A stretch of 27,590 bases of DNA from IMG/VR virus record IMGVR_UViG_2551306525_000002, positions 1 through 27,590 of that record, one strand, 5' to 3'. The position numbers were made by a program, and so were the translations under genes. This stretch comes from a virus (Duplodnaviria > Heunggongvirae > Uroviricota > Caudoviricetes). Positions 2,239-24,035 of this stretch are shown piece after piece (position 1 is the stretch's first letter; each line of letters starts with the position of its first letter). A model generated the notes under the pieces. The model saw nothing but the letters and a program-made list of their open reading frames with translations. It was not told the DNA's origin and made no database searches.

Positions 2239-3861
2239 CTATTTTCTCCTGAAGTTTAATAGCTTTATTATTAACCAAACCAAAACCATGGATGTGGCAA
2301 AGTAAATTGCATCTTCATAGCTTTTGAGTCCAGATTTCTTAATTAAAAGTGACAGGTTTAGTGTTTCAAATAATGGCTTTACTAAAATTGGGGATAATGA
2401 TGTCGATGCAATTAAACCAAAGGCCATTGTTATCTTCTTATTACTTTTGTCATTTAAGTCGGCATCAATTAATTTTAGCACTTGGATTCTTGACTTTATC
2501 AATTCAATGACGCTTTGACGAGCCCTTTTTATATCGATTGAATTTAATGTATTAAATGTGAAGTCTTGTATCTCTCCATACTTCCTTGAGAAAATCCTAA
2601 GCCACTCTTCAAATAAAAGGATGTCTTCTTGTATTTTGGCAAGGCCAAGATGGCTTTTTTCATTTCCAATTTTTTCTATTGTTGAATCATATGAAAAGGA
2701 AATGAAATCTCTAAGATCACTCTTAACCTGATTGTCCCACATCAGATTTTCTTCTGTATATGTCCCGGTAAAAAATTCTTTTTTAACTTTACATGTAAGT
2801 ATAGTCAGTGCTAAAGACTGTTCAGAAAAAAAATTGAAATCATCAAAGGCACGATGATCAATGATTTTCTTGGTGTGCTTTATGTTTGTTAATAGGTGAT
2901 TTTTGCCCAGCAATGAATAAACTAACGACTTATTACTCTGAAAATTGTCAGTGGCATTGTTTTTTTGATTATCGTGCTCGAAGATATAGACGCTTGGCTT
3001 ACCTTGCCAGAAGTTATAAAACTCAGAAAGATTTCTGCCTAAAAGATAATCTTTAATTGTTCTTTTTTTTGTTTTGTCAAATATTATAGCAATCACATAT
3101 CTGGCGATGTCACTTAAATTATGCTGAATTTGCATTAAATTTGTGTAATCAATATATCTACCTGTAACCTTAAATTCACCAACCTCTAGATCTTCAGAGT
3201 TGTCGTTCAATAGTTTTAAACTCTTTTTAATACTACACTTCGCTATCAGTCTACTAAGTAGTGGCATTCCTGAATAGTCTAGCAGTAACGAACTCTTGGC
3301 GAACTCTATGCTGGTAGTAATCGAACTGTTTAGTTTTAAAGGTAGGTTTAAAATGTTTTTTATGAAATCATTCAAATCAACATTGCGTTCCTCAGTGTCA
3401 ACAAAGGTAACATGTGCTATCCCATTTTTATAGAGACGAATAATTGGATGAATAAAAAATTCCACATCGTTATTTTTTACTAGGATTGGCTTTTGACAAC
3501 ATATTATGTTTTCGTAATAATTATTACCTGATGTGTGAAAAAGCTTTCTTTCAGAGAGTCTAATGTTTATACACTGGGAAAAAGCCGTAGCAGTTAGGGC
3601 GCAAACACCTGACGCATGAATCTTATCACCGCCCTCAACAGTAACAGCATTTTCGTTGTTTTCATATCTCATGCTTATTTTTGTTGAGGATGGTGTGTTT
3701 TTTGATAAATATTTGAATGTGTTGTGTGGCGTTAGTATTGCAAGAAACAACCCTGTATTTATCAAGTCTGAACTAAATTTCTCGGCATCTTGATATTCTG
3801 GCGATTGTGTTGTGTATGTATGCCAAATTACGCCTCTTTGAATTTGCATATCACTACCCAT
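2239..3861 (-). CDS. AT-rich cargo protein of unknown function (540 aa), hydrophobic C-terminus; candidate phage-exclusion/defence gene at the tin/old locus
   Basis: Long uninterrupted ORF in a region visibly much more AT-rich than flanking phage genes. Lies between gene A and cos, where P2 carries tin and old, on the same leftward strand as those genes. No Walker A motif, so not an Old-type ATPase. Two hydrophobic segments near the C-terminus (AFGLIASTSLSPILV, ATSMVLVWLIIKLL). True start may be M1 (3861) or M5 (3849). Confidence 0.75.
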   Translation of the reverse strand: MGSDMQIQRGVIWHTYTTQSPEYQDAEKFSSDLINTGLFLAILTPHNTFKYLSKNTPSSTKISMRYENNENAVTVEGGDKIHASGVCALTATAFSQCINIRLSERKLFHTSGNNYYENIICCQKPILVKNNDVEFFIHPIIRLYKNGIAHVTFVDTEERNVDLNDFIKNILNLPLKLNSSITTSIEFAKSSLLLDYSGMPLLSRLIAKCSIKKSLKLLNDNSEDLEVGEFKVTGRYIDYTNLMQIQHNLSDIARYVIAIIFDKTKKRTIKDYLLGRNLSEFYNFWQGKPSVYIFEHDNQKNNATDNFQSNKSLVYSLLGKNHLLTNIKHTKKIIDHRAFDDFNFFSEQSLALTILTCKVKKEFFTGTYTEENLMWDNQVKSDLRDFISFSYDSTIEKIGNEKSHLGLAKIQEDILLFEEWLRIFSRKYGEIQDFTFNTLNSIDIKRARQSVIELIKSRIQVLKLIDADLNDKSNKKITMAFGLIASTSLSPILVKPLFETLNLSLLIKKSGLKSYEDAIYFATSMVLVWLIIKLLNFRRK

Positions 3862-14733: not shown

Positions 14734-15641
14734 ATGCCGATTATCGACCTGAACCAGCTACCCGCACCGGATGTGGTCGAGGAGCTGGACTTTGAAACCA
14801 TTCTTGCCGAACGCAAGGCGACACTGATTTCCCTTTACCCGGAAGACCAGCAGGAGGCGGTCGCCCGTACCCTGACGCTGGAATCCGAACCTCTCGTCAA
14901 ACTGCTGGAGGAAAATGCTTATCGTGAGCTTATCTGGCGTCAGCGTGTGAATGAGGCCGCACGGGCGGTGATGCTGGCCTGTGCTGCCGGTAATGACCTT
15001 GATGTGATTGGTGCCAATTACAACACCACGCGCCTGATATCACCCCGGCAGATGATTCGACCATCCCGCCGACACCGGCAGTGATGGAATCTGACACGGA
15101 TTATCGTCTGCGTATTCAGCAGGCGTTTGAAGGTTTAAGCGTCGCCGGGTCGGTGGGGGCCTATCAGTATCATGGTCGCAGTGCCGACGGGCGTGTCGCG
15201 GATATTTCTGTAACCAGTCCGTCTCCGGCCTGCGTCACCATCTCTGTGCTGTCACGTGAAAATAACGGTGTGGCATCCGAAGACCTGCTGGCCGTGGTGC
15301 GTAACGCCCTTAATGGCGAGGACGTCAGGCCGGTGGCCGACCGCGTGACCGTGCAGTCTGCCGACATCGTTGAATACCAGATAAACGCCACGCTGTATCT
15401 TTACCCTGGTCCCGAAAGCGAACCCATTCGCGCTGCCGCCGTGAAAAAACTGGAAGCGTATATCACGGCACAGCACCGGCTGGGGCGCGACATCCGTCTG
15501 TCTGCCATTTATGCCGCTTTGCATGTGGAAGGCGTGCAGCGTGTCGAACTGGCTGCACCGCTGGCCGACATCGTGCTCAACAATACGCAGGCGTCTTTCT
15601 GTACCGAATACAGCGTCGTGACCGGAGGCTCGGATGAGTGA
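14734..15641 (+). pseudogene. J: Baseplate protein gpJ, interrupted by a 1-bp deletion frameshift near 15037-15038 (ORFs of 116 and 186 aa that together give the 302-aa gpJ)
   Basis: The first ORF ends TRLISPRQMIRPSRRHRQ* in frame 1. Frame 0 is open through the same bases and reads ...ITPADDSTIPPTPAVMESDTDYR, continuous with the second ORF. 116 + 186 = 302 aa, the P2 gpJ length. Confidence 0.8.
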
Positions 15642-18872: not shown

Positions 18873-19400
18873 ATGCAGCATTTAAAAAATATTACTGCGG
18901 GTAATCCAAAAACTGTTGCTCAATATCAACTGACAAAAAATTTTGATGTTATCTGGTTATGGTCCGAAGACGGAAAAAACTGGTATGAGGAAGTAAGTAA
19001 TTTTCAGGAAGACACGATAAAGATTGTTTACGACGAGAATAATATAATTGTCGGCATCACCAGAGATGCTTCAACGCTTAACCCTGAAGGTTTTAGCGTT
19101 GTCGAGGTTCCTGATATTACCGCCAACCGACGTGCTGATGACTCAGGTAAATGGATGTTTAAGGATGGTGCCGTGATTAAGCGGATTTATACGGCAGACG
19201 AACAGCAACAACAGACAGAATCACAAAAGGCCGCGTTACTTTCCGAAGCGGAAAGCGTTATTCAGCCACTGGAGCGCGCTGTCAGGCTGAACATGGCAAC
19301 AGATGAGGAGCATAGCCGACTGGAAGCATGGGAACGCTACAGTGTTCTGGTCAGCCGTGTGGATCCTGCAAATCCCGAATGGCCGAAAATGCCACAATAA
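18873..19400 (+). CDS. G: Tail fibre assembly chaperone gpG (175 aa)
   Basis: Length identical to P2 gpG; immediately follows H. Confidence 0.87.
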
Positions 19401-19461
19401 GTTGTATGAGCTCTGGTGTGAGCTTACATATCTATGGCACAGAGTAAAGCCTGATCTGACA

Positions 19462-19485
19462 GTCCGCTCTGTGCCAAGAGCGGAC
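19462..19485. repeat. Palindromic boundary motif, copy 1: GTCCGCTC-(8 nt)-GAGCGGAC
   Basis: Perfect 8-bp inverted repeat about 60 bp after the G stop; 20 of 24 positions match the copy at 21608-21631. Confidence 0.6.
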
Positions 19486-19756
19486 CTTAGGCTTCAGTAA
19501 TTTGGTTAGCACAACCCCTTTGATAAACATACAGCTACAGTATTGCTTTTATAAGGAGCGTAGTTTCAATAGGACACCCCAAACGTTAGTCGGGAAAAGC
19601 CGACTGAAAAAAACTTGTGTGGACAAGTAGTGTCCATTTAATGCCATTTTTAGATTAAAATGTGCCATTTTGAGGGTATTCTTAAACGTGCATAACGTTC
19701 TGATTTATCATACACAGAGCCTTATCATTTGAAACCATTCCGATGTACATCAAACA

Positions 19757-21292
19757 ATGATTACAAGAGAAATTATGACACCGCCAACCAAAATTGATAC
19801 ATCAAGTCTACTTACCATATTGGGCGTTATTGCTGCTGTATGGGCCCTTATTACGCCAAACGCTCGACTACGTTTAAGGTTCTGCCTAGCGTGGTGGGAT
19901 TGGGTAATTGTTGGGTTTGCATTCTTACTAAGCAATTATTTGGTGTTTGCACCGGCTTTAAAATCACTAGACTTATATTTTAGCTTTGGCCCCTGGAAAT
20001 GGGGATTAGATAGTTCAAGTGCCGTATACCTGATATCACTCGCAGTTGCTATTTACATTTTATTTCGCTTAAAAAACCCTAAACTCTCAATTGGAAGAAC
20101 AGGGATATTTCTAGAGTTAGTGGAAAATTTGCACCTTACTAAACGATACGACGATCTGGCACAATTGTTGGCACCTCAACTAGAAAAATTAATATCAATA
20201 ATTGATAGACCTGTGAAGAATCGACTTTGTGATAAGATAGCTAACAATCTCCGCATCTCTAATCGCGAGACAGCTGCTGAACATGCACATGAAGCATTGT
20301 TAAATATTGTCTCATCACCTGAACTTACCAATCACTTTGCACTTGCGCACCCATCCCTCTGCCTTGAGTTAATCAAGATCGAGCCAATAGTTCGTTCTGA
20401 CTTTACTTCTAATTTTATCAGTGCATTACTTGGTTCACCTAACAGTCGTCTATATGTTGAGCTTAAAAATAATCTTAACGTTAGTCGAGGACATCGTTTA
20501 TTGATTCCAAAAAACAACCGTATATTACATTTTTTCTTTTCCAATGCTAAGTTTGCAGCTGATTTAGCAATATACCGTGATATCGGTGACTATCTCTACT
20601 GGAGGTTAGATGAAGATGAAAAAATTATTGCTGCACTTAATAAGTCTTTAGGTTCCTATTACGATGCTTCAAAATATAAATGTCCTATTTACTCAGGTGT
20701 CACGCTGTTTGAAATTATGGTTCATGAAGGTATTCACCAGGGTCTTCAGGATCATTTATGGTTGCATTACTATTCATATTTCGCAAGGAAAATTATAAAG
20801 AATATGAATAGGCAATCAGATGAATATAGTGGTGAATGGGAAACACCTTTTCACTTCCTTCTCTGTCATTTATTTAGCGTCGCTACAGATTGGGCAGAAC
20901 AATGCGAATGGATAGATGAAAAGGAGATTCCTCAAGAAAATAAAGAAATAGATAATTTCGATCTTCATTATATTTCAAAAGAGGCTACCAAATTACTTGG
21001 TGCTATGCTGCAGTTGGTTATGCCTAATAAAAAACTCACCTTGAAATCTAGAAAGCATATTCTTGATATAGTTGTATCTTGTTATATTAGGTTGAAAAGG
21101 AATAAAAAATTAAAAGACGTCGCTGACTCATTATTAATTTTCACCACTAGAGGCGAAGGTAATTCAGCACCGCCGCATTATCGTAGAGAACTTCTAGAAA
21201 TATTCAATACCCTTGATGATTATCGATTAAGAACTGATGCCCCGGAATTCCGAGCAGCTATAGAGTCTGCTATTCAAGCAAGGCCGAATTAG
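19757..21292 (+). CDS. AT-rich cargo protein of unknown function (511 aa) with three predicted N-terminal transmembrane helices and a large soluble C-terminal domain; candidate defence/exclusion gene at the Z/fun locus
   Basis: Long ORF in a strongly AT-rich island between G and FI. Hydrophobic segments LLTILGVIAAVWALI, WWDWVIVGFAFLLSNYLVFAP and AVYLISLAVAIYILF. Start may be M7 (19775, purine-rich AAGAGAAA just upstream) rather than 19757. No family recognised. Confidence 0.75.
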   Translation: MITREIMTPPTKIDTSSLLTILGVIAAVWALITPNARLRLRFCLAWWDWVIVGFAFLLSNYLVFAPALKSLDLYFSFGPWKWGLDSSSAVYLISLAVAIYILFRLKNPKLSIGRTGIFLELVENLHLTKRYDDLAQLLAPQLEKLISIIDRPVKNRLCDKIANNLRISNRETAAEHAHEALLNIVSSPELTNHFALAHPSLCLELIKIEPIVRSDFTSNFISALLGSPNSRLYVELKNNLNVSRGHRLLIPKNNRILHFFFSNAKFAADLAIYRDIGDYLYWRLDEDEKIIAALNKSLGSYYDASKYKCPIYSGVTLFEIMVHEGIHQGLQDHLWLHYYSYFARKIIKNMNRQSDEYSGEWETPFHFLLCHLFSVATDWAEQCEWIDEKEIPQENKEIDNFDLHYISKEATKLLGAMLQLVMPNKKLTLKSRKHILDIVVSCYIRLKRNKKLKDVADSLLIFTTRGEGNSAPPHYRRELLEIFNTLDDYRLRTDAPEFRAAIESAIQARPN

Positions 21293-21299
21293 GTAAATC

Positions 21300-21322
21300 A
21301 ACCACCTGCATAGCGGGTGGTT
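21300..21322 (+). terminator. Weak putative terminator hairpin after the 511-aa gene (AACCACC-(9 nt)-GGTGGTT followed by a short T stretch)
   Basis: 7-bp perfect stem starting 8 nt after the stop codon; only 3 T residues follow. Confidence 0.35.
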
Positions 21323-21565
21323 TAGACATAGACCTCTAAGTATGCCTGAAAGCAGAGGTACCTCTAAGTTTCGATGTCTAGGTGTTGATCGGCTGTAATC
21401 TGGTAACCAGGTCAAGCTTAAAATTTTCTCAACATAAACAAGTAGTATTTCAAATATTGAACCATACTGACTCCCCCACTTTTTATAAGATTATGGAAAT
21501 TTTTTGTACCAGTAAGTTCGAAAATTAGTGTTGTTCTCATCAGTCGTTATGAAAAATTTTGAACT

Positions 21566-21587
21566 TCCGCTCCTCGCTCACAGCGGA
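21566..21587. repeat. Palindromic boundary motif, copy 2: TCCGCT-(10 nt)-AGCGGA
   Basis: Inverted repeat related to copies at 19462, 21608 and 22628 (CTCGCTCACAGCGGAC here versus CTCGCTCAAAGCAGAC at 22636). Confidence 0.55.
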
Positions 21588-21607
21588 CCCTCAACTCAGC
21601 CAGCAAT

Positions 21608-21631
21608 GTCCGCTGCTTGCCAGGAGCGGAC
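21608..21631. repeat. Palindromic boundary motif, copy 3: GTCCGCT-(10 nt)-AGCGGAC
   Basis: 20 of 24 positions identical to copy 1; lies between the convergent 511-aa and 250-aa cargo genes. Confidence 0.6.
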
Positions 21632-21667
21632 GTAGTTTAATCTCTACTATGTTAATAAGTAATGATA

Positions 21668-22420
21668 TTAAATAAACTCATCATTAAGAAAGCCTGTTGA
21701 TAAAAAGTTCTGAATGTGAAGATAAAAAGAATAACGTGTATCTTCATTTTTTTTCTTCGATGTGTTGAGTTCCGGCTTGAGATTGTAAATAAGATGAGAC
21801 TCTATAAAGTCAAGTAATTCTATAGCTAATGATGTCGGACTAATCCAATCCAGTGAAATATAGTCTTTTCCATCATAAAACCATGGGGTGGCTCTATATA
21901 TCCTCTTTTTCATATTATTATATTTGGGATCTAGCAACTTTAAGGCAGCCGAGTGACCGCCAATAAACCTTTTGGAGTTAACGGTTTTTCCGACATAAAC
22001 AATGTGTTCATTGGTATCATCCATATCAGAGCATGATATTAAATAGATTGGTAATGAGGGTTTGGGAGGAATGCCGATTTTTTTTTCGATTATCACCCTC
22101 TCCTTTTCATGAATAAAAATGGGAAGCTTTCCATTAAATTCACTCTTCACATTCCCCAAGAATGAATCTGTATTTTTCCTAGCTTCATGCAGTCCGACCC
22201 AGTTAAGACTATTGACCTGATGGAGAGGACAGCATTCCTGTATTGATAACCAAGCCTCCCAATCACTTGATGGATTATCACTACAGTTTTGGCCCGAAAA
22301 TCTGTGTGAAAGGAATTTTCTCCCCTCGAACCAGGCTTGCAACGGAATATATATGTCTGAAGTGTTCTGCTCGACTTCAATTAATGGACTGTTAGTATCC
22401 AAATTTATGCCTCCTTTCAT
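21668..22420 (-). CDS. AT-rich cargo protein (250 aa) with a C-terminal GIY-YIG-like nuclease signature; candidate exclusion/defence nuclease at the Z/fun position
   Basis: Minus-strand ORF just upstream of FI, where P2 carries Z/fun in the same orientation. Residues ~124-213 read PIY-(13 aa)-HIVYVGKTVNSKRFIGGH...AIELLDFIESHLIYN, resembling the GIY / YVGK / R / H / E / N pattern of GIY-YIG nucleases (compare the I-TevI and UvrC N-terminal motifs as I recall them). The N-terminal ~110 aa are unassigned. Confidence 0.7.
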   Translation of the reverse strand: MKGGINLDTNSPLIEVEQNTSDIYIPLQAWFEGRKFLSHRFSGQNCSDNPSSDWEAWLSIQECCPLHQVNSLNWVGLHEARKNTDSFLGNVKSEFNGKLPIFIHEKERVIIEKKIGIPPKPSLPIYLISCSDMDDTNEHIVYVGKTVNSKRFIGGHSAALKLLDPKYNNMKKRIYRATPWFYDGKDYISLDWISPTSLAIELLDFIESHLIYNLKPELNTSKKKNEDTRYSFYLHIQNFLSTGFLNDEFI

Positions 22421-22627
22421 TAAGTATTTGCATAAAAATATCTAAAAATAAGAAATTCTTTAATTAAGATTATAAGTTAAATATAAGTACCAATGAAGCT
22501 TTGAATGATTTCGCATCAATAAATTAATTCTAACACAATACCATATAATAACGAAAAATGTCACTACTTGGTCGTTGAGGATATGACATTGCAATTAAAG
22601 AGAAAACCTTAACACACTATCTATAAC

Positions 22628-22651
22628 GTCCGTTTCTCGCTCAAAGCAGAC
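22628..22651. repeat. Degenerate copy 4 of the boundary motif (GTCCGTTTCTCGCTCAAAGCAGAC); hairpin no longer perfect
   Basis: 19 of 24 positions identical to copy 2 when aligned; located in the upstream region of the 250-aa minus-strand gene. Confidence 0.45.
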
Positions 22652-22719
22652 TGTCAGATTTGATAGCATTTGGGCTATGTAAATTGTCAGGCGGAAAATG
22701 AGTGAGTACAAATCAGGAC

Positions 22720-22844: not shown

Positions 22845-24035
22845 ATGAGTGACTATCATCACGGCGTGCAGGTGCTGGAGATTAACGAGGGCACCCGCGT
22901 CATTTCCACCGTATCCACGGCCATTGTCGGCATGGTCTGCACGGCCAGCGATGCGGATGCGGAAATCTTCCCCCTCAATAAACCGGTGCTGATTACCAAT
23001 GTGCAGAGCGCAATTGCAAAGGCCGGTAAAAAAGGCACGCTGGCGGCATCGTTGCAGGCCATCGCCGACCAGTCAAAACCGGTCACCGTTGTCGTGCGTG
23101 TGGAAGACGGCACCGGCGAAGACGAAGAAACGAAACTCGCGCAGACTGTTTCCAATATCATCGGAACCACCGACGAAAACGGTCAGTACACCGGACTGAA
23201 AGCCCTGCTGGCGGCGGAGTCGGTAACCGGTGTTAAACCGCGTATTCTCGGTGTGCCGGGGCTGGATACCAAAGAGGTGGCTGTTGCACTGGCATCCGTC
23301 TGTCAGAAGCTGCGCGCTTTCGGATATATCAGCGCATGGGGCTGTAAGACCATTTCCGAGGTGAAAGCCTACCGCCAGAATTTCAGCCAGCGTGAGCTGA
23401 TGGTCATCTGGCCGGATTTCCTCGCATGGGATACGGTCACCAGTACCACTGCCACCGCGTATGCCACCGCCCGTGCGCTGGGTCTGCGCGCTAAAATCGA
23501 CCAGGAGCAGGGCTGGCATAAAACGCTGTCCAACGTCGGGGTGAACGGTGTTACCGGCATCAGCGCCTCTGTATTCTGGGATTTGCAGGAGTCCGGCACC
23601 GATGCTGACCTGCTTAACGAGTCAGGCGTCACTACGCTGATTCGCCGCGACGGTTTCCGCTTCTGGGGTAACCGTACCTGCTCTGATGACCCGCTGTTTC
23701 TCTTTGAAAACTACACACGCACCGCGCAGGTGCTGGCCGACACGATGGCTGAGGCGCACATGTGGGCGGTGGACAAGCCCATCACCGCAACGCTGATTCG
23801 CGACATCGTTGACGGCATCAATGCCAAATTCCGTGAGCTGAAAACAAACGGCTATATCGTGGATGGCTCATGCTGGTTCAGCGAAGAATCCAACGATGCG
23901 GAAACCCTCAAGGCCGGAAAACTGTATATCGACTACGACTATACCCCGGTGCCTCCTCTTGAAAACCTGACCCTGCGCCAGCGTATTACCGATAAATACC
24001 TGGCGAATCTGGTCACCTCGGTTAACAGCAATTAA
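22845..24035 (+). CDS. FI: Tail sheath protein gpFI (396 aa)
   Basis: Length identical to P2 gpFI; sequence recognised as a contractile-tail sheath protein. Confidence 0.9.
   Translation: MSDYHHGVQVLEINEGTRVISTVSTAIVGMVCTASDADAEIFPLNKPVLITNVQSAIAKAGKKGTLAASLQAIADQSKPVTVVVRVEDGTGEDEETKLAQTVSNIIGTTDENGQYTGLKALLAAESVTGVKPRILGVPGLDTKEVAVALASVCQKLRAFGYISAWGCKTISEVKAYRQNFSQRELMVIWPDFLAWDTVTSTTATAYATARALGLRAKIDQEQGWHKTLSNVGVNGVTGISASVFWDLQESGTDADLLNESGVTTLIRRDGFRFWGNRTCSDDPLFLFENYTRTAQVLADTMAEAHMWAVDKPITATLIRDIVDGINAKFRELKTNGYIVDGSCWFSEESNDAETLKAGKLYIDYDYTPVPPLENLTLRQRITDKYLANLVTSVNSN

Follow-up and report, generated by a model that had tools for sequence, protein, structure and literature searches.

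A predicted GIY-YIG nuclease with an acidic N-terminal module, candidate single-gene anti-phage cargo at the Z/fun hotspot of a P2-like prophage

Results and discussion

A hypothetical cargo gene between G and FI

The window analysed here is the whole 27,590-nt stretch of the Caudoviricetes record IMGVR_UViG_2551306525_000002, and it covers most of a P2-like prophage, beginning with the replication gene's end and, at the old/tin position, one low-GC cargo gene, followed by Q, P and the late genes. Its minus strand carries, as originally predicted, an open reading frame (ORF) of 250 amino acids (aa) at 21668..22420, whose product appears to be a GIY-YIG nuclease and for which we propose, with moderate confidence, a role in defence against phages. 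The ORF lies in a cargo block of about 3 kb, with a GC content of 0.34-0.39 at 19501-22500 against 0.54-0.62 in the flanks, between the tail-fibre assembly gene G (18873..19400, +) and the tail sheath gene FI (22845..24035, +). When this block was compared with phage genomes by megablast, P2 and its relatives matched in the two flanks only. Since fun(Z) fills the G-FI interval on the minus strand in the P2 record, the position and orientation of P2 Z/fun, which the original prediction had assigned to the ORF, are confirmed. The locus thus has what defines Z/fun hotspot cargo, a variable, low-GC gene between G and FI in a P2-like backbone. The gene had also been taken as stand-alone cargo; it is a separate gene, but not the only one, as a second cargo ORF of 511 aa on the plus strand converges on it. 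Vassallo et al. (2022) described the fun locus as a second defence-enriched locus of P2-like phages, and it held three of their validated defence systems plus fun (PMC9519451). The gene and its neighbour have the following features.

21668..22420, minus strand: ORF of this study, 250 aa from ATG 22420
21668..22402, minus strand: probable real coding sequence, 244 aa, TTG start
22410..22417, minus strand: Shine-Dalgarno sequence AAAGGAGG, read from the sequence, 7 nt upstream of TTG 22402
22064..22363, minus strand: acidic, family-specific N-terminal module, residues 20-119, no fold match
21764..22051, minus strand: predicted GIY-YIG catalytic core, residues 124-219, with PIY126, VY142VG, R151, GGH156, K172, E207 and N219
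22535..22564, minus strand: promoter-like site GTGACA-18-TATTGT with extended -10 TG, found by consensus scan some 115 nt upstream of the gene
19757..21292, plus strand: 511-aa cargo gene, product with three hydrophobic segments at the N-terminal end, the rest large and soluble

No Shine-Dalgarno sequence precedes the ATG at 22420, and a perfect AAAGGAGG comes directly after this codon. Given this element upstream of TTG 22402, the 244-aa annotation in RefSeq and the N-termini of close homologues, translation probably starts at TTG 22402. Residues are numbered throughout on the 250-aa version, so that our numbers run 6 above those of the likely protein. The 735-nt version is in RefSeq under the name hypothetical protein, the only name given to the identical 244-aa product on 213 contigs of E. 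coli and other Enterobacterales. The candidate promoter is weak, because promoter-like sites are fewer in this region than in shuffled sequences.

The C-terminal half has the residues and predicted fold of a GIY-YIG core

Searches found 85 homologous clusters, and 34 of them, from Proteobacteria and Bacillales (27-91% identity), were aligned. Identity is 84-91% in Enterobacterales, about 50% in Pseudomonas, Acinetobacter, Betaproteobacteria and Halodesulfovibrio, and 27-34% in Bacillales. Across this range P124, Y126, Y142, G144, R151, F152, G155, H156, K172, E207 and N219 are invariant, so the motif is not due to chance. Judged from the alignment, these residues include the canonical GIY-YIG set of two Tyr, an Arg, His/Lys, a Glu and an Asn. 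The catalytic pattern of the original prediction therefore stands for Y126, Y142, R151 and E207. It does not for E201, which is not conserved, or for N213, which is variable; the conserved Asn is N219.

Both Tyr motifs are present, with PIY126 on strand 125-131 and VY142VG on strand 139-145 of the predicted model. They are 16 residues apart, where the usual distance between the two Tyr of GIY-YIG domains is about 10-11, and the wider spacing is accounted for by a longer acidic hairpin loop. R151 follows Y142 by 9 residues, with H156 and K172 as the nearby His and Lys. E207 lies on a predicted helix, 196-214, and N219 is 12 residues further on. The same E-to-N spacing of 12 is seen when hhalign places IES..LIY....PELN of the family over LEH..IKL..PRYN of UvrC, in an alignment that is not significant.

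At the level of the family, Pfam recovers the domain in the correct register, PF20815 (GIY_YIG_2) in 22 and PF01541 in 19 of the 34 homologues, mostly below threshold. Two of them, P0017 (23.3 bits) and P0060 (24.0 bits), pass the PF20815 gathering score of 22.4, and P0031 and P0059 cover positions 4-74 of the 78-position PF01541 profile. Ten distant relatives that share only the core, tried as a bridge to GIY-YIG, gave no Pfam match. Among the PHROGs only phrog_16890, of unannotated function, was found. The predicted model shows an alpha/beta core, a three-stranded sheet with flanking helices, and the full model has Eco29kI and UvrC among its best fold matches, with I-TevI also present; the compact enzymes EndoII and Eco29kI are structurally the closest to the model. 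Taken together, predicted structure and family-level evidence make the assignment of a GIY-YIG domain well supported.

An acidic N-terminal module appears to pack on the core

The first 19 residues are disordered in the predicted model, and residues 20-119 are conserved throughout the family. This N-terminal module is acidic in every member, with a net charge of -2 to -15 and a median isoelectric point of 4.7. The full model is one globule rather than two tethered domains (predicted template modelling score, pTM, 0.84), in which the N-terminal 120 or so residues appear to pack onto the nuclease core. A strand at 55-65 forms only in the full-length model and is lost when the N-terminal part is modelled alone, and the model of that part alone matched no structure. 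Given its acidity, the lack of a fold match and the lost strand, the reading of the N-terminal part as a separate sensing domain is not supported. An acidic module of this kind does not resemble a classical DNA-reading domain; a part with regulatory or protein-contact function, packed on the nuclease, seems the better description.

Some distant relatives have the nuclease core only, behind unrelated N-termini (for example, P0177 and P0215). A 209-aa protein of Klebsiella phage-plasmids likewise shares only the core, with 42% identity to residues 124-250, and has a different, shorter N-terminus. As these relatives retain the core and swap the N-terminus, the N-terminal part is an exchangeable element.

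L031 5755-6384 (Klebsiella phage-plasmid OW966982.1) and relatives: 209-aa core-sharing protein, near RepFIB, on phage-plasmids of about 110 kb

The family profile also gave a weak match to a DUF1778/TacA antitoxin (PDB 7zg5; E 0.14) over residues of about 50-120 (window 22061-22270, -), where the order strand-helix-helix recalls a ribbon-helix-helix fold. We treat this likeness as chance; no family member matches DUF1778 in Pfam.

The family is small, patchy and repeatedly found among defence genes

An exhaustive search with a hidden Markov model (HMM) among 1.84 billion proteins gave 248 representatives at 50% identity, nearly all of 225-260 aa. The gene itself is rare, being present in 6 of 5,426 complete E. 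coli genomes (0.1%), and tblastn against 50,697 phage genomes found no homologue. Literature searches returned no paper on the protein family and nothing for the protein accessions.

The surroundings of the gene were compared at 15 loci, by all-against-all comparison of the ORFs within 6 kb on each side. No neighbour was conserved except in near-identical copies, and neither an adjacent methyltransferase nor a conserved small antitoxin gene was seen at these loci; the sole nearby methylase, some 2.5 kb off at one of them, in Microbulbifer, belongs to a type I M+S pair. Many of the neighbours are known defence or mobility genes. In Acinetobacter the homologue is cargo of a Tn7-like transposon, adjoining Shedu or DUF3800, and in Halodesulfovibrio it is on an integrative and conjugative element, adjoining Thoeris ThsA/ThsB. 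The Proteus homologue lies between tail genes and an integrase, adjoining SIR2 and a STAND NTPase, that of Psychrobacillus adjoins an OLD-family nuclease and DndB, and that of Virgibacillus a Gabija-like GajA/GajB pair. Near the Peribacillus homologue are Mrr_cat and an integrase, and that of Microbulbifer adjoins a PIN protein, an integrase and the type I methylase with its S subunit. On an Alkalihalophilus plasmid the neighbours are recombinases, an AAA ATPase and a protein with a nuclease-related domain (NERD-like). A defence role, considered plausible in the original prediction, is the best reading of these neighbourhoods (Shedu, Thoeris, Mrr, SIR2-STAND, OLD and Gabija).

At three loci a small GNAT gene adjoins the homologue (L004 8888-9217 in Pseudomonas, L025 7812-8213 in a betaproteobacterium and L026 6282-6791 in Psychrobacillus). 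The three genes are not linked by BLAST at 1e-5, so this adjacency may be coincidence.

Proposed function

The reading that we favour, with the moderate confidence stated above, is a self-contained single-gene anti-phage, or more generally anti-invader, nuclease, carried as a lysogenic-conversion cassette at the Z/fun hotspot. What suggests it is a complete catalytic core in a gene that is mobile, patchy and found among defence genes; nuclease activity, a phage DNA target, gating by the N-terminal part and a protective phenotype are what we infer from these. The C-terminal half would be a catalytically complete GIY-YIG domain of the compact EndoII/Eco29kI/UvrC type, cutting nucleic acid, most likely DNA. 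The acidic N-terminal 120 or so residues, packed against this core, would most likely gate the nuclease, keeping it off host DNA until some cue of infection is received, or limiting it to a DNA feature found only in phages.

A lone nuclease that crosses phyla without a methyltransferase needs a rule for self and non-self that does not depend on the host. Two such rules fit, one in which the acidic module holds the enzyme closed and another in which the module reads a modification of phage DNA. The charge of the module and the one-globule model lead us to prefer the gate slightly over the modification reader.

Several results weigh against the anti-phage nuclease reading. The window protein itself matches PF01541, the profile named in the original prediction, below threshold (residues 125-161, E 0.033, 14.9 bits, cut-off 22.6), as it does PF20815 (residues 186-228, E 0.094, 13.1 bits, cut-off 22.4). 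The hhalign comparison of the family with residues 1-110 of E. coli UvrC aligned only the E...N helix, at a probability of 3.5%, no structure in the PDB was matched by Foldseek below E 0.1, and profile and single-sequence searches of the PDB returned no GIY-YIG chain. PADLOC 2.0.0 and NCBIfam gave no relevant match to the protein, and database entries of the family are named only 'hypothetical protein' or, by automatic annotation, 'GIY-YIG nuclease family protein'. The Pseudomonas and betaproteobacterium homologues sit in housekeeping surroundings, next to the GNAT acetyltransferase. The gating role is read from charge and the predicted model, and since no basic surface suited to DNA binding is obvious on the protein, RNA or another substrate is possible.

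Comparison with known GIY-YIG enzymes

By function the protein would be most like CMoRE/PD-T4-3 (PDB 9u75), a single-protein GIY-YIG defence enzyme of 248 aa (Liu et al. 2026, PMC12923530). In CMoRE a negatively charged loop over the active site restrains the nuclease, and its removal makes the enzyme toxic (PMC12923530). Both are single proteins of about 250 aa with a GIY-YIG domain, one accessory domain and no partner gene, and the acidic module proposed as a gate here would be comparable to the restraining loop of CMoRE; moreover, the screen of the E. coli pangenome from which CMoRE came had also pointed to the fun hotspot. The two differ in most other respects. There is no detectable sequence similarity, neither in PADLOC nor in searches with PDB sequences; CMoRE's GIY-YIG domain lies N-terminally, with the sensor at the C-terminus, whereas here the core takes up residues 124-219 of 250; the third Tyr of GIYxY is lacking, as PIY-LIS has L-I after Y126; and the accessory module is unrelated and without a fold match. 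Given no HMM match, the reversed order, the absence of GIYxY and the unrelated accessory module, the protein is not a member of CMoRE/PD-T4-3. It would be a new family, with a new architecture, of the known single-gene GIY-YIG defence kind. PD-λ-1 and Uzume are also reported as single-gene defence systems with a GIY-YIG-family domain (bioRxiv 10.1101/2024.10.26.620412), a likeness in gene number and domain. No PADLOC 2.0.0 model for CMoRE/PD-T4-3, PD-λ-1 or Uzume matched the protein at E up to 10.

Other GIY-YIG enzymes are further away. T4 endonuclease II (DenA; PDB 2wsh), a phage enzyme of 136 aa, breaks down host DNA that is unmodified; the protein described here has in addition the N-terminal module of 120 residues, is carried by prophages and islands, and belongs to a family absent from the 50,697 phage genomes. 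Restriction enzymes of the R.Eco29kI/Cfr42I type (PDB 3mx4) differ from it in that none of the 15 loci has an adjacent methyltransferase, and no significant sequence match was obtained. In I-TevI-type enzymes the catalytic domain is N-terminal and tethered to C-terminal DNA-binding modules, and the genes reside in phages or introns, none of which applies here. With P2 Fun(Z), annotated in the P2 record as a lysogenic-conversion gene blocking T5, the protein shares locus, strand and boundary sites; Fun(Z) has 528 aa of unrelated sequence, and only the flanks align.

The convergent 511-aa gene

The 511-aa protein has no Pfam, NCBIfam or PADLOC assignment and falls into phrog_13820, whose function is not annotated. 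Its gene occurs in 81 E. coli genomes, including non-P2 islands, and in 75 of the 81 the GIY-YIG gene is lacking; these solo copies are 93-99.6% identical. All six E. coli copies of the GIY-YIG gene adjoin it, with an identity of at least 99.8%, and the two genes are also found together as a 3.19-kb block in a Leclercia plasmid-like contig. Klebsiella phage-plasmids have relatives of both genes that are not adjacent, with 75% nucleotide identity for the 511-aa gene. The GIY-YIG module is found without the 511-aa gene in Proteus, Serratia, Rouxiella and all distant taxa; in Proteus it sits alone in a lambdoid prophage, with 83% nucleotide identity over 21625-22601. Since each gene occurs without the other, the two are independent modules stacked at this locus, and the 511-aa protein is a second, uncharacterised defence candidate.

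Boundary sites and a candidate recombinase

The palindrome GTCCGCT-N10-AGCGGAC has three exact copies in the window, against 0.02 expected, all of them in the hotspot, and a fourth, degenerate copy is at 22628-22651. Copies are present at every module edge, within the following sites.

19453..19489, plus strand: boundary site type a, 56 nt past the G stop, left edge of the hotspot
21559..21593, minus strand: boundary site type b, on the 3' side of the 511-aa gene, back-to-back with 21606-21638
21606..21638, plus strand: boundary site type a (GTCCGCT-N10-AGCGGAC), on the 3' side of the GIY-YIG gene
22621..22660, minus strand: degenerate boundary site type b, right-hand hotspot edge, between the upstream region of the gene and the FI promoter

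Breakpoints between genomes fall on these sites. Homology to P2 stops at 19489 and restarts at 22625; the stretch in common with the Leclercia plasmid-like contig is exactly 19459-22643 and that with the Proteus copy 21625-22601, and the 511-aa module of other E. coli stops at 21589. Copies in IMG/VR have a conserved asymmetric spacer of two classes, a (TGTGCCA) and b (TGAGCGA), giving the full sites GTCCGCT-nTGTGCCAnn-AGCGGAC and GTCCGCT-nTGAGCGAnn-AGCGGAC. A small HMM located 192 sites in 101 loci, which form 91 adjacent pairs; as the motif itself had served to fetch the loci, the sample is biased. In 57 of the 91 pairs a faces b with 0.5-5.7 kb between them, an arrangement that we interpret as a cassette. 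Another 17 are b/a junctions in back-to-back order with a typical gap of 8-9 nt, and the other 17 are exceptions. An 'a -> cassette <- b' grammar is accordingly obeyed by 74 of these motif-fetched pairs. P2 fun(Z) is flanked in the same way (L029 660-692, +, and 2760-2777, -), as are AraC/LysE; Rouxiella and Serratia homologues of the GIY-YIG protein, 50% identical to it, share the layout, and sites occur also in L013, L019, L017, L001, L033 and L154-L160. An Rfam search of the hotspot gave no match. Repeats of the REP/BIME type were rejected as an explanation, the hairpins being found in only 1-3 places per genome, and so were plain rho-independent terminators, for which there is no T-run and which do not fit a conserved asymmetric spacer with consistent orientation rules.

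Arrays flanked by such sites in Leclercia, E. coli C7, Nissle 1917 and others contain a gene for a 200-aa tyrosine recombinase that consists of the catalytic domain only.

L013 9128-9736 (minus strand), L154 5114-5716 (plus strand), L156 2-592 and L158/L159/L160 9001-9603: 200-aa recombinase

Its copies are 90-97% identical between the Leclercia plasmid-like contig and E. coli chromosomal islands, and half-sites, split in the spacer, flank the gene. The protein is about 20% identical to FimB, with weak matches to Xer and integron-integrase models. Among the 5,426 E. coli genomes, 863 have the recombinase and 869 a back-to-back site pair, and close relatives form at least 7,988 clusters across Gammaproteobacteria. 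Inverted arms around an asymmetric spacer are the standard design of a tyrosine-recombinase core site, and two different sites flanking a cassette are the design for recombinase-mediated cassette exchange. The 200-aa recombinase is a candidate cassette-exchange enzyme. Tentatively, and at less than even confidence, the GIY-YIG gene may be a unit of a cassette-exchange system in which the recombinase swaps cargo bounded by a and b, a-by-a and b-by-b. In the same tentative way, the system could extend over the cargo of the P2 Z/fun hotspot and several enterobacterial islands and plasmids. If this is true, it would provide a mechanism for shuffling defence genes among phages, plasmids and islands.

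A 2026 survey of P2/P4 hotspots left the mechanism of cassette swapping open, and such elements are absent from its text (PMC13586616). Our literature searches on the boundary elements or the linked recombinase found no accessible description. The flanking repeats themselves were probably noticed already by Nilsson et al. in 2004, in Mol Biol Evol 21:1; what might be new is the a/b grammar and the link to a recombinase.

Alternative explanations

A specific version of the defence reading would be a restriction enzyme of type IV (modification-dependent) and of the CMoRE kind, in which the N-terminal gate is replaced by a reader of hydroxymethylcytosine (hmC), glucosyl-hmC or another hypermodification of phage DNA, and the GIY-YIG domain then cuts. 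We consider this possible and rather doubtful. A single gene with no methyltransferase partner at the 15 loci, moving freely between phyla, is what such an enzyme would look like, and the similar-sized CMoRE/PD-T4-3 is one that cleaves 5hmC/5ghmC DNA. Modification-dependent enzymes are modular, with GIY-YIG as one of their usual nuclease domains (PMC12191111), which agrees with the relatives described above that keep the core and change the N-terminus. The module of the present family is strongly acidic, however, which is unusual for a DNA reader, and no SRA, YTH/EVE or winged-helix structure is among the matches of the full model, while the N-terminal model matched nothing. The opposite domain order, the missing GIYxY motif and the lack of a match to the PADLOC model of PD-T4-3 separate the protein from CMoRE, and the single globule of the model does not resemble a reader tethered to a nuclease.

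The remaining explanations are all improbable in our judgement. It is conceivable that the protein has a role outside defence. It might be a type II restriction enzyme left as an orphan, act as a toxin or in an addiction module, or serve the mobile element in repair or recombination as a structure-specific nuclease of the UvrC/Slx1/YhbQ kind; Eco29kI and UvrC among the best fold matches, two homologues amid housekeeping genes and recombination-site-like palindromes beside the gene would agree with this. Yet neither a cognate methyltransferase nor a small antitoxin gene is conserved nearby, a gene present in so few E. coli genomes does not fit a repair function, and the family is found repeatedly beside known defence systems in four phyla. 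About as unlikely is a two-gene system in which the 511-aa membrane protein is the sensor and the nuclease the effector. Defence by membrane-bound nucleases that cut phage DNA as it enters has been reported, all six E. coli genomes with the GIY-YIG gene have its partner alongside, and the pair moved together as one block into the Leclercia contig. But the near identity of the six copies suggests one acquisition, the two genes have separate pairs of boundary sites, and each travels alone elsewhere, the 511-aa gene in 75 other E. coli genomes and the nuclease gene in Proteus, Serratia, Rouxiella and distant taxa, the relatives on Klebsiella phage-plasmids being apart as well. Least likely of all is a selfish, homing-type GIY-YIG endonuclease that cuts empty target sites, perhaps the palindromic boundary sites. 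A small mobile unit with palindromic flanking sites, present in several unrelated elements, and I-TevI among the fold matches recall such enzymes. Homing, which the original prediction had kept as its alternative, is at odds with the absence of homologues from phage genomes, with a C-terminal catalytic domain lacking any NUMOD, IENR1 or helix-turn-helix module in Pfam, and with flanking genes that differ at every locus. Since unrelated genes (AraC/LysE, P2 fun(Z) and the 511-aa gene) are flanked by the same sites, these are not peculiar to the GIY-YIG gene, and homologues outside Enterobacterales are without them altogether. Absence from sequenced phage genomes, reversed order, the lack of a partner gene and patchiness thus disfavour the homing endonuclease, the orphan restriction enzyme, the toxin and the repair nuclease.

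If the protein is indeed a protective anti-phage nuclease, it would represent a fourth, sequence-unrelated family among the few single-gene GIY-YIG defence nucleases, with a reverse domain order and an acidic accessory module without a fold match. The N-terminal module would then have to encode some new discrimination between phage and host, or else a trigger of a new kind. The family is compact (about 230-250 aa) and ranges from E. coli to Bacillales, which makes it easy to test, and it could be of use as a tool if its activity depends on DNA modification or structure. A nuclease at the fun hotspot will not surprise the specialist; the acidic module and the absent annotation are what make it a worthwhile target, and a clean example of hotspot cargo left 'hypothetical' by Pfam thresholds, NCBIfam and PADLOC 2.0.0.

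Other features of the window

Another unannotated cargo gene, a 540-aa ORF at 2239-3861 (-), occupies the old/tin hotspot that separates the replication gene from Q; it has a low GC of 0.32-0.39 and no Pfam or PADLOC match. The baseplate gene J is apparently split by a frameshift at 14734-15641 (+; 908 nt in total), into a 116-aa ORF at 14734..15084 followed by a 186-aa ORF at 15081..15641 in a different frame. Only the second piece, of 186 aa, matches Baseplate_J, at profile positions 113-254, and the split may reflect either a defective prophage or a sequencing error.

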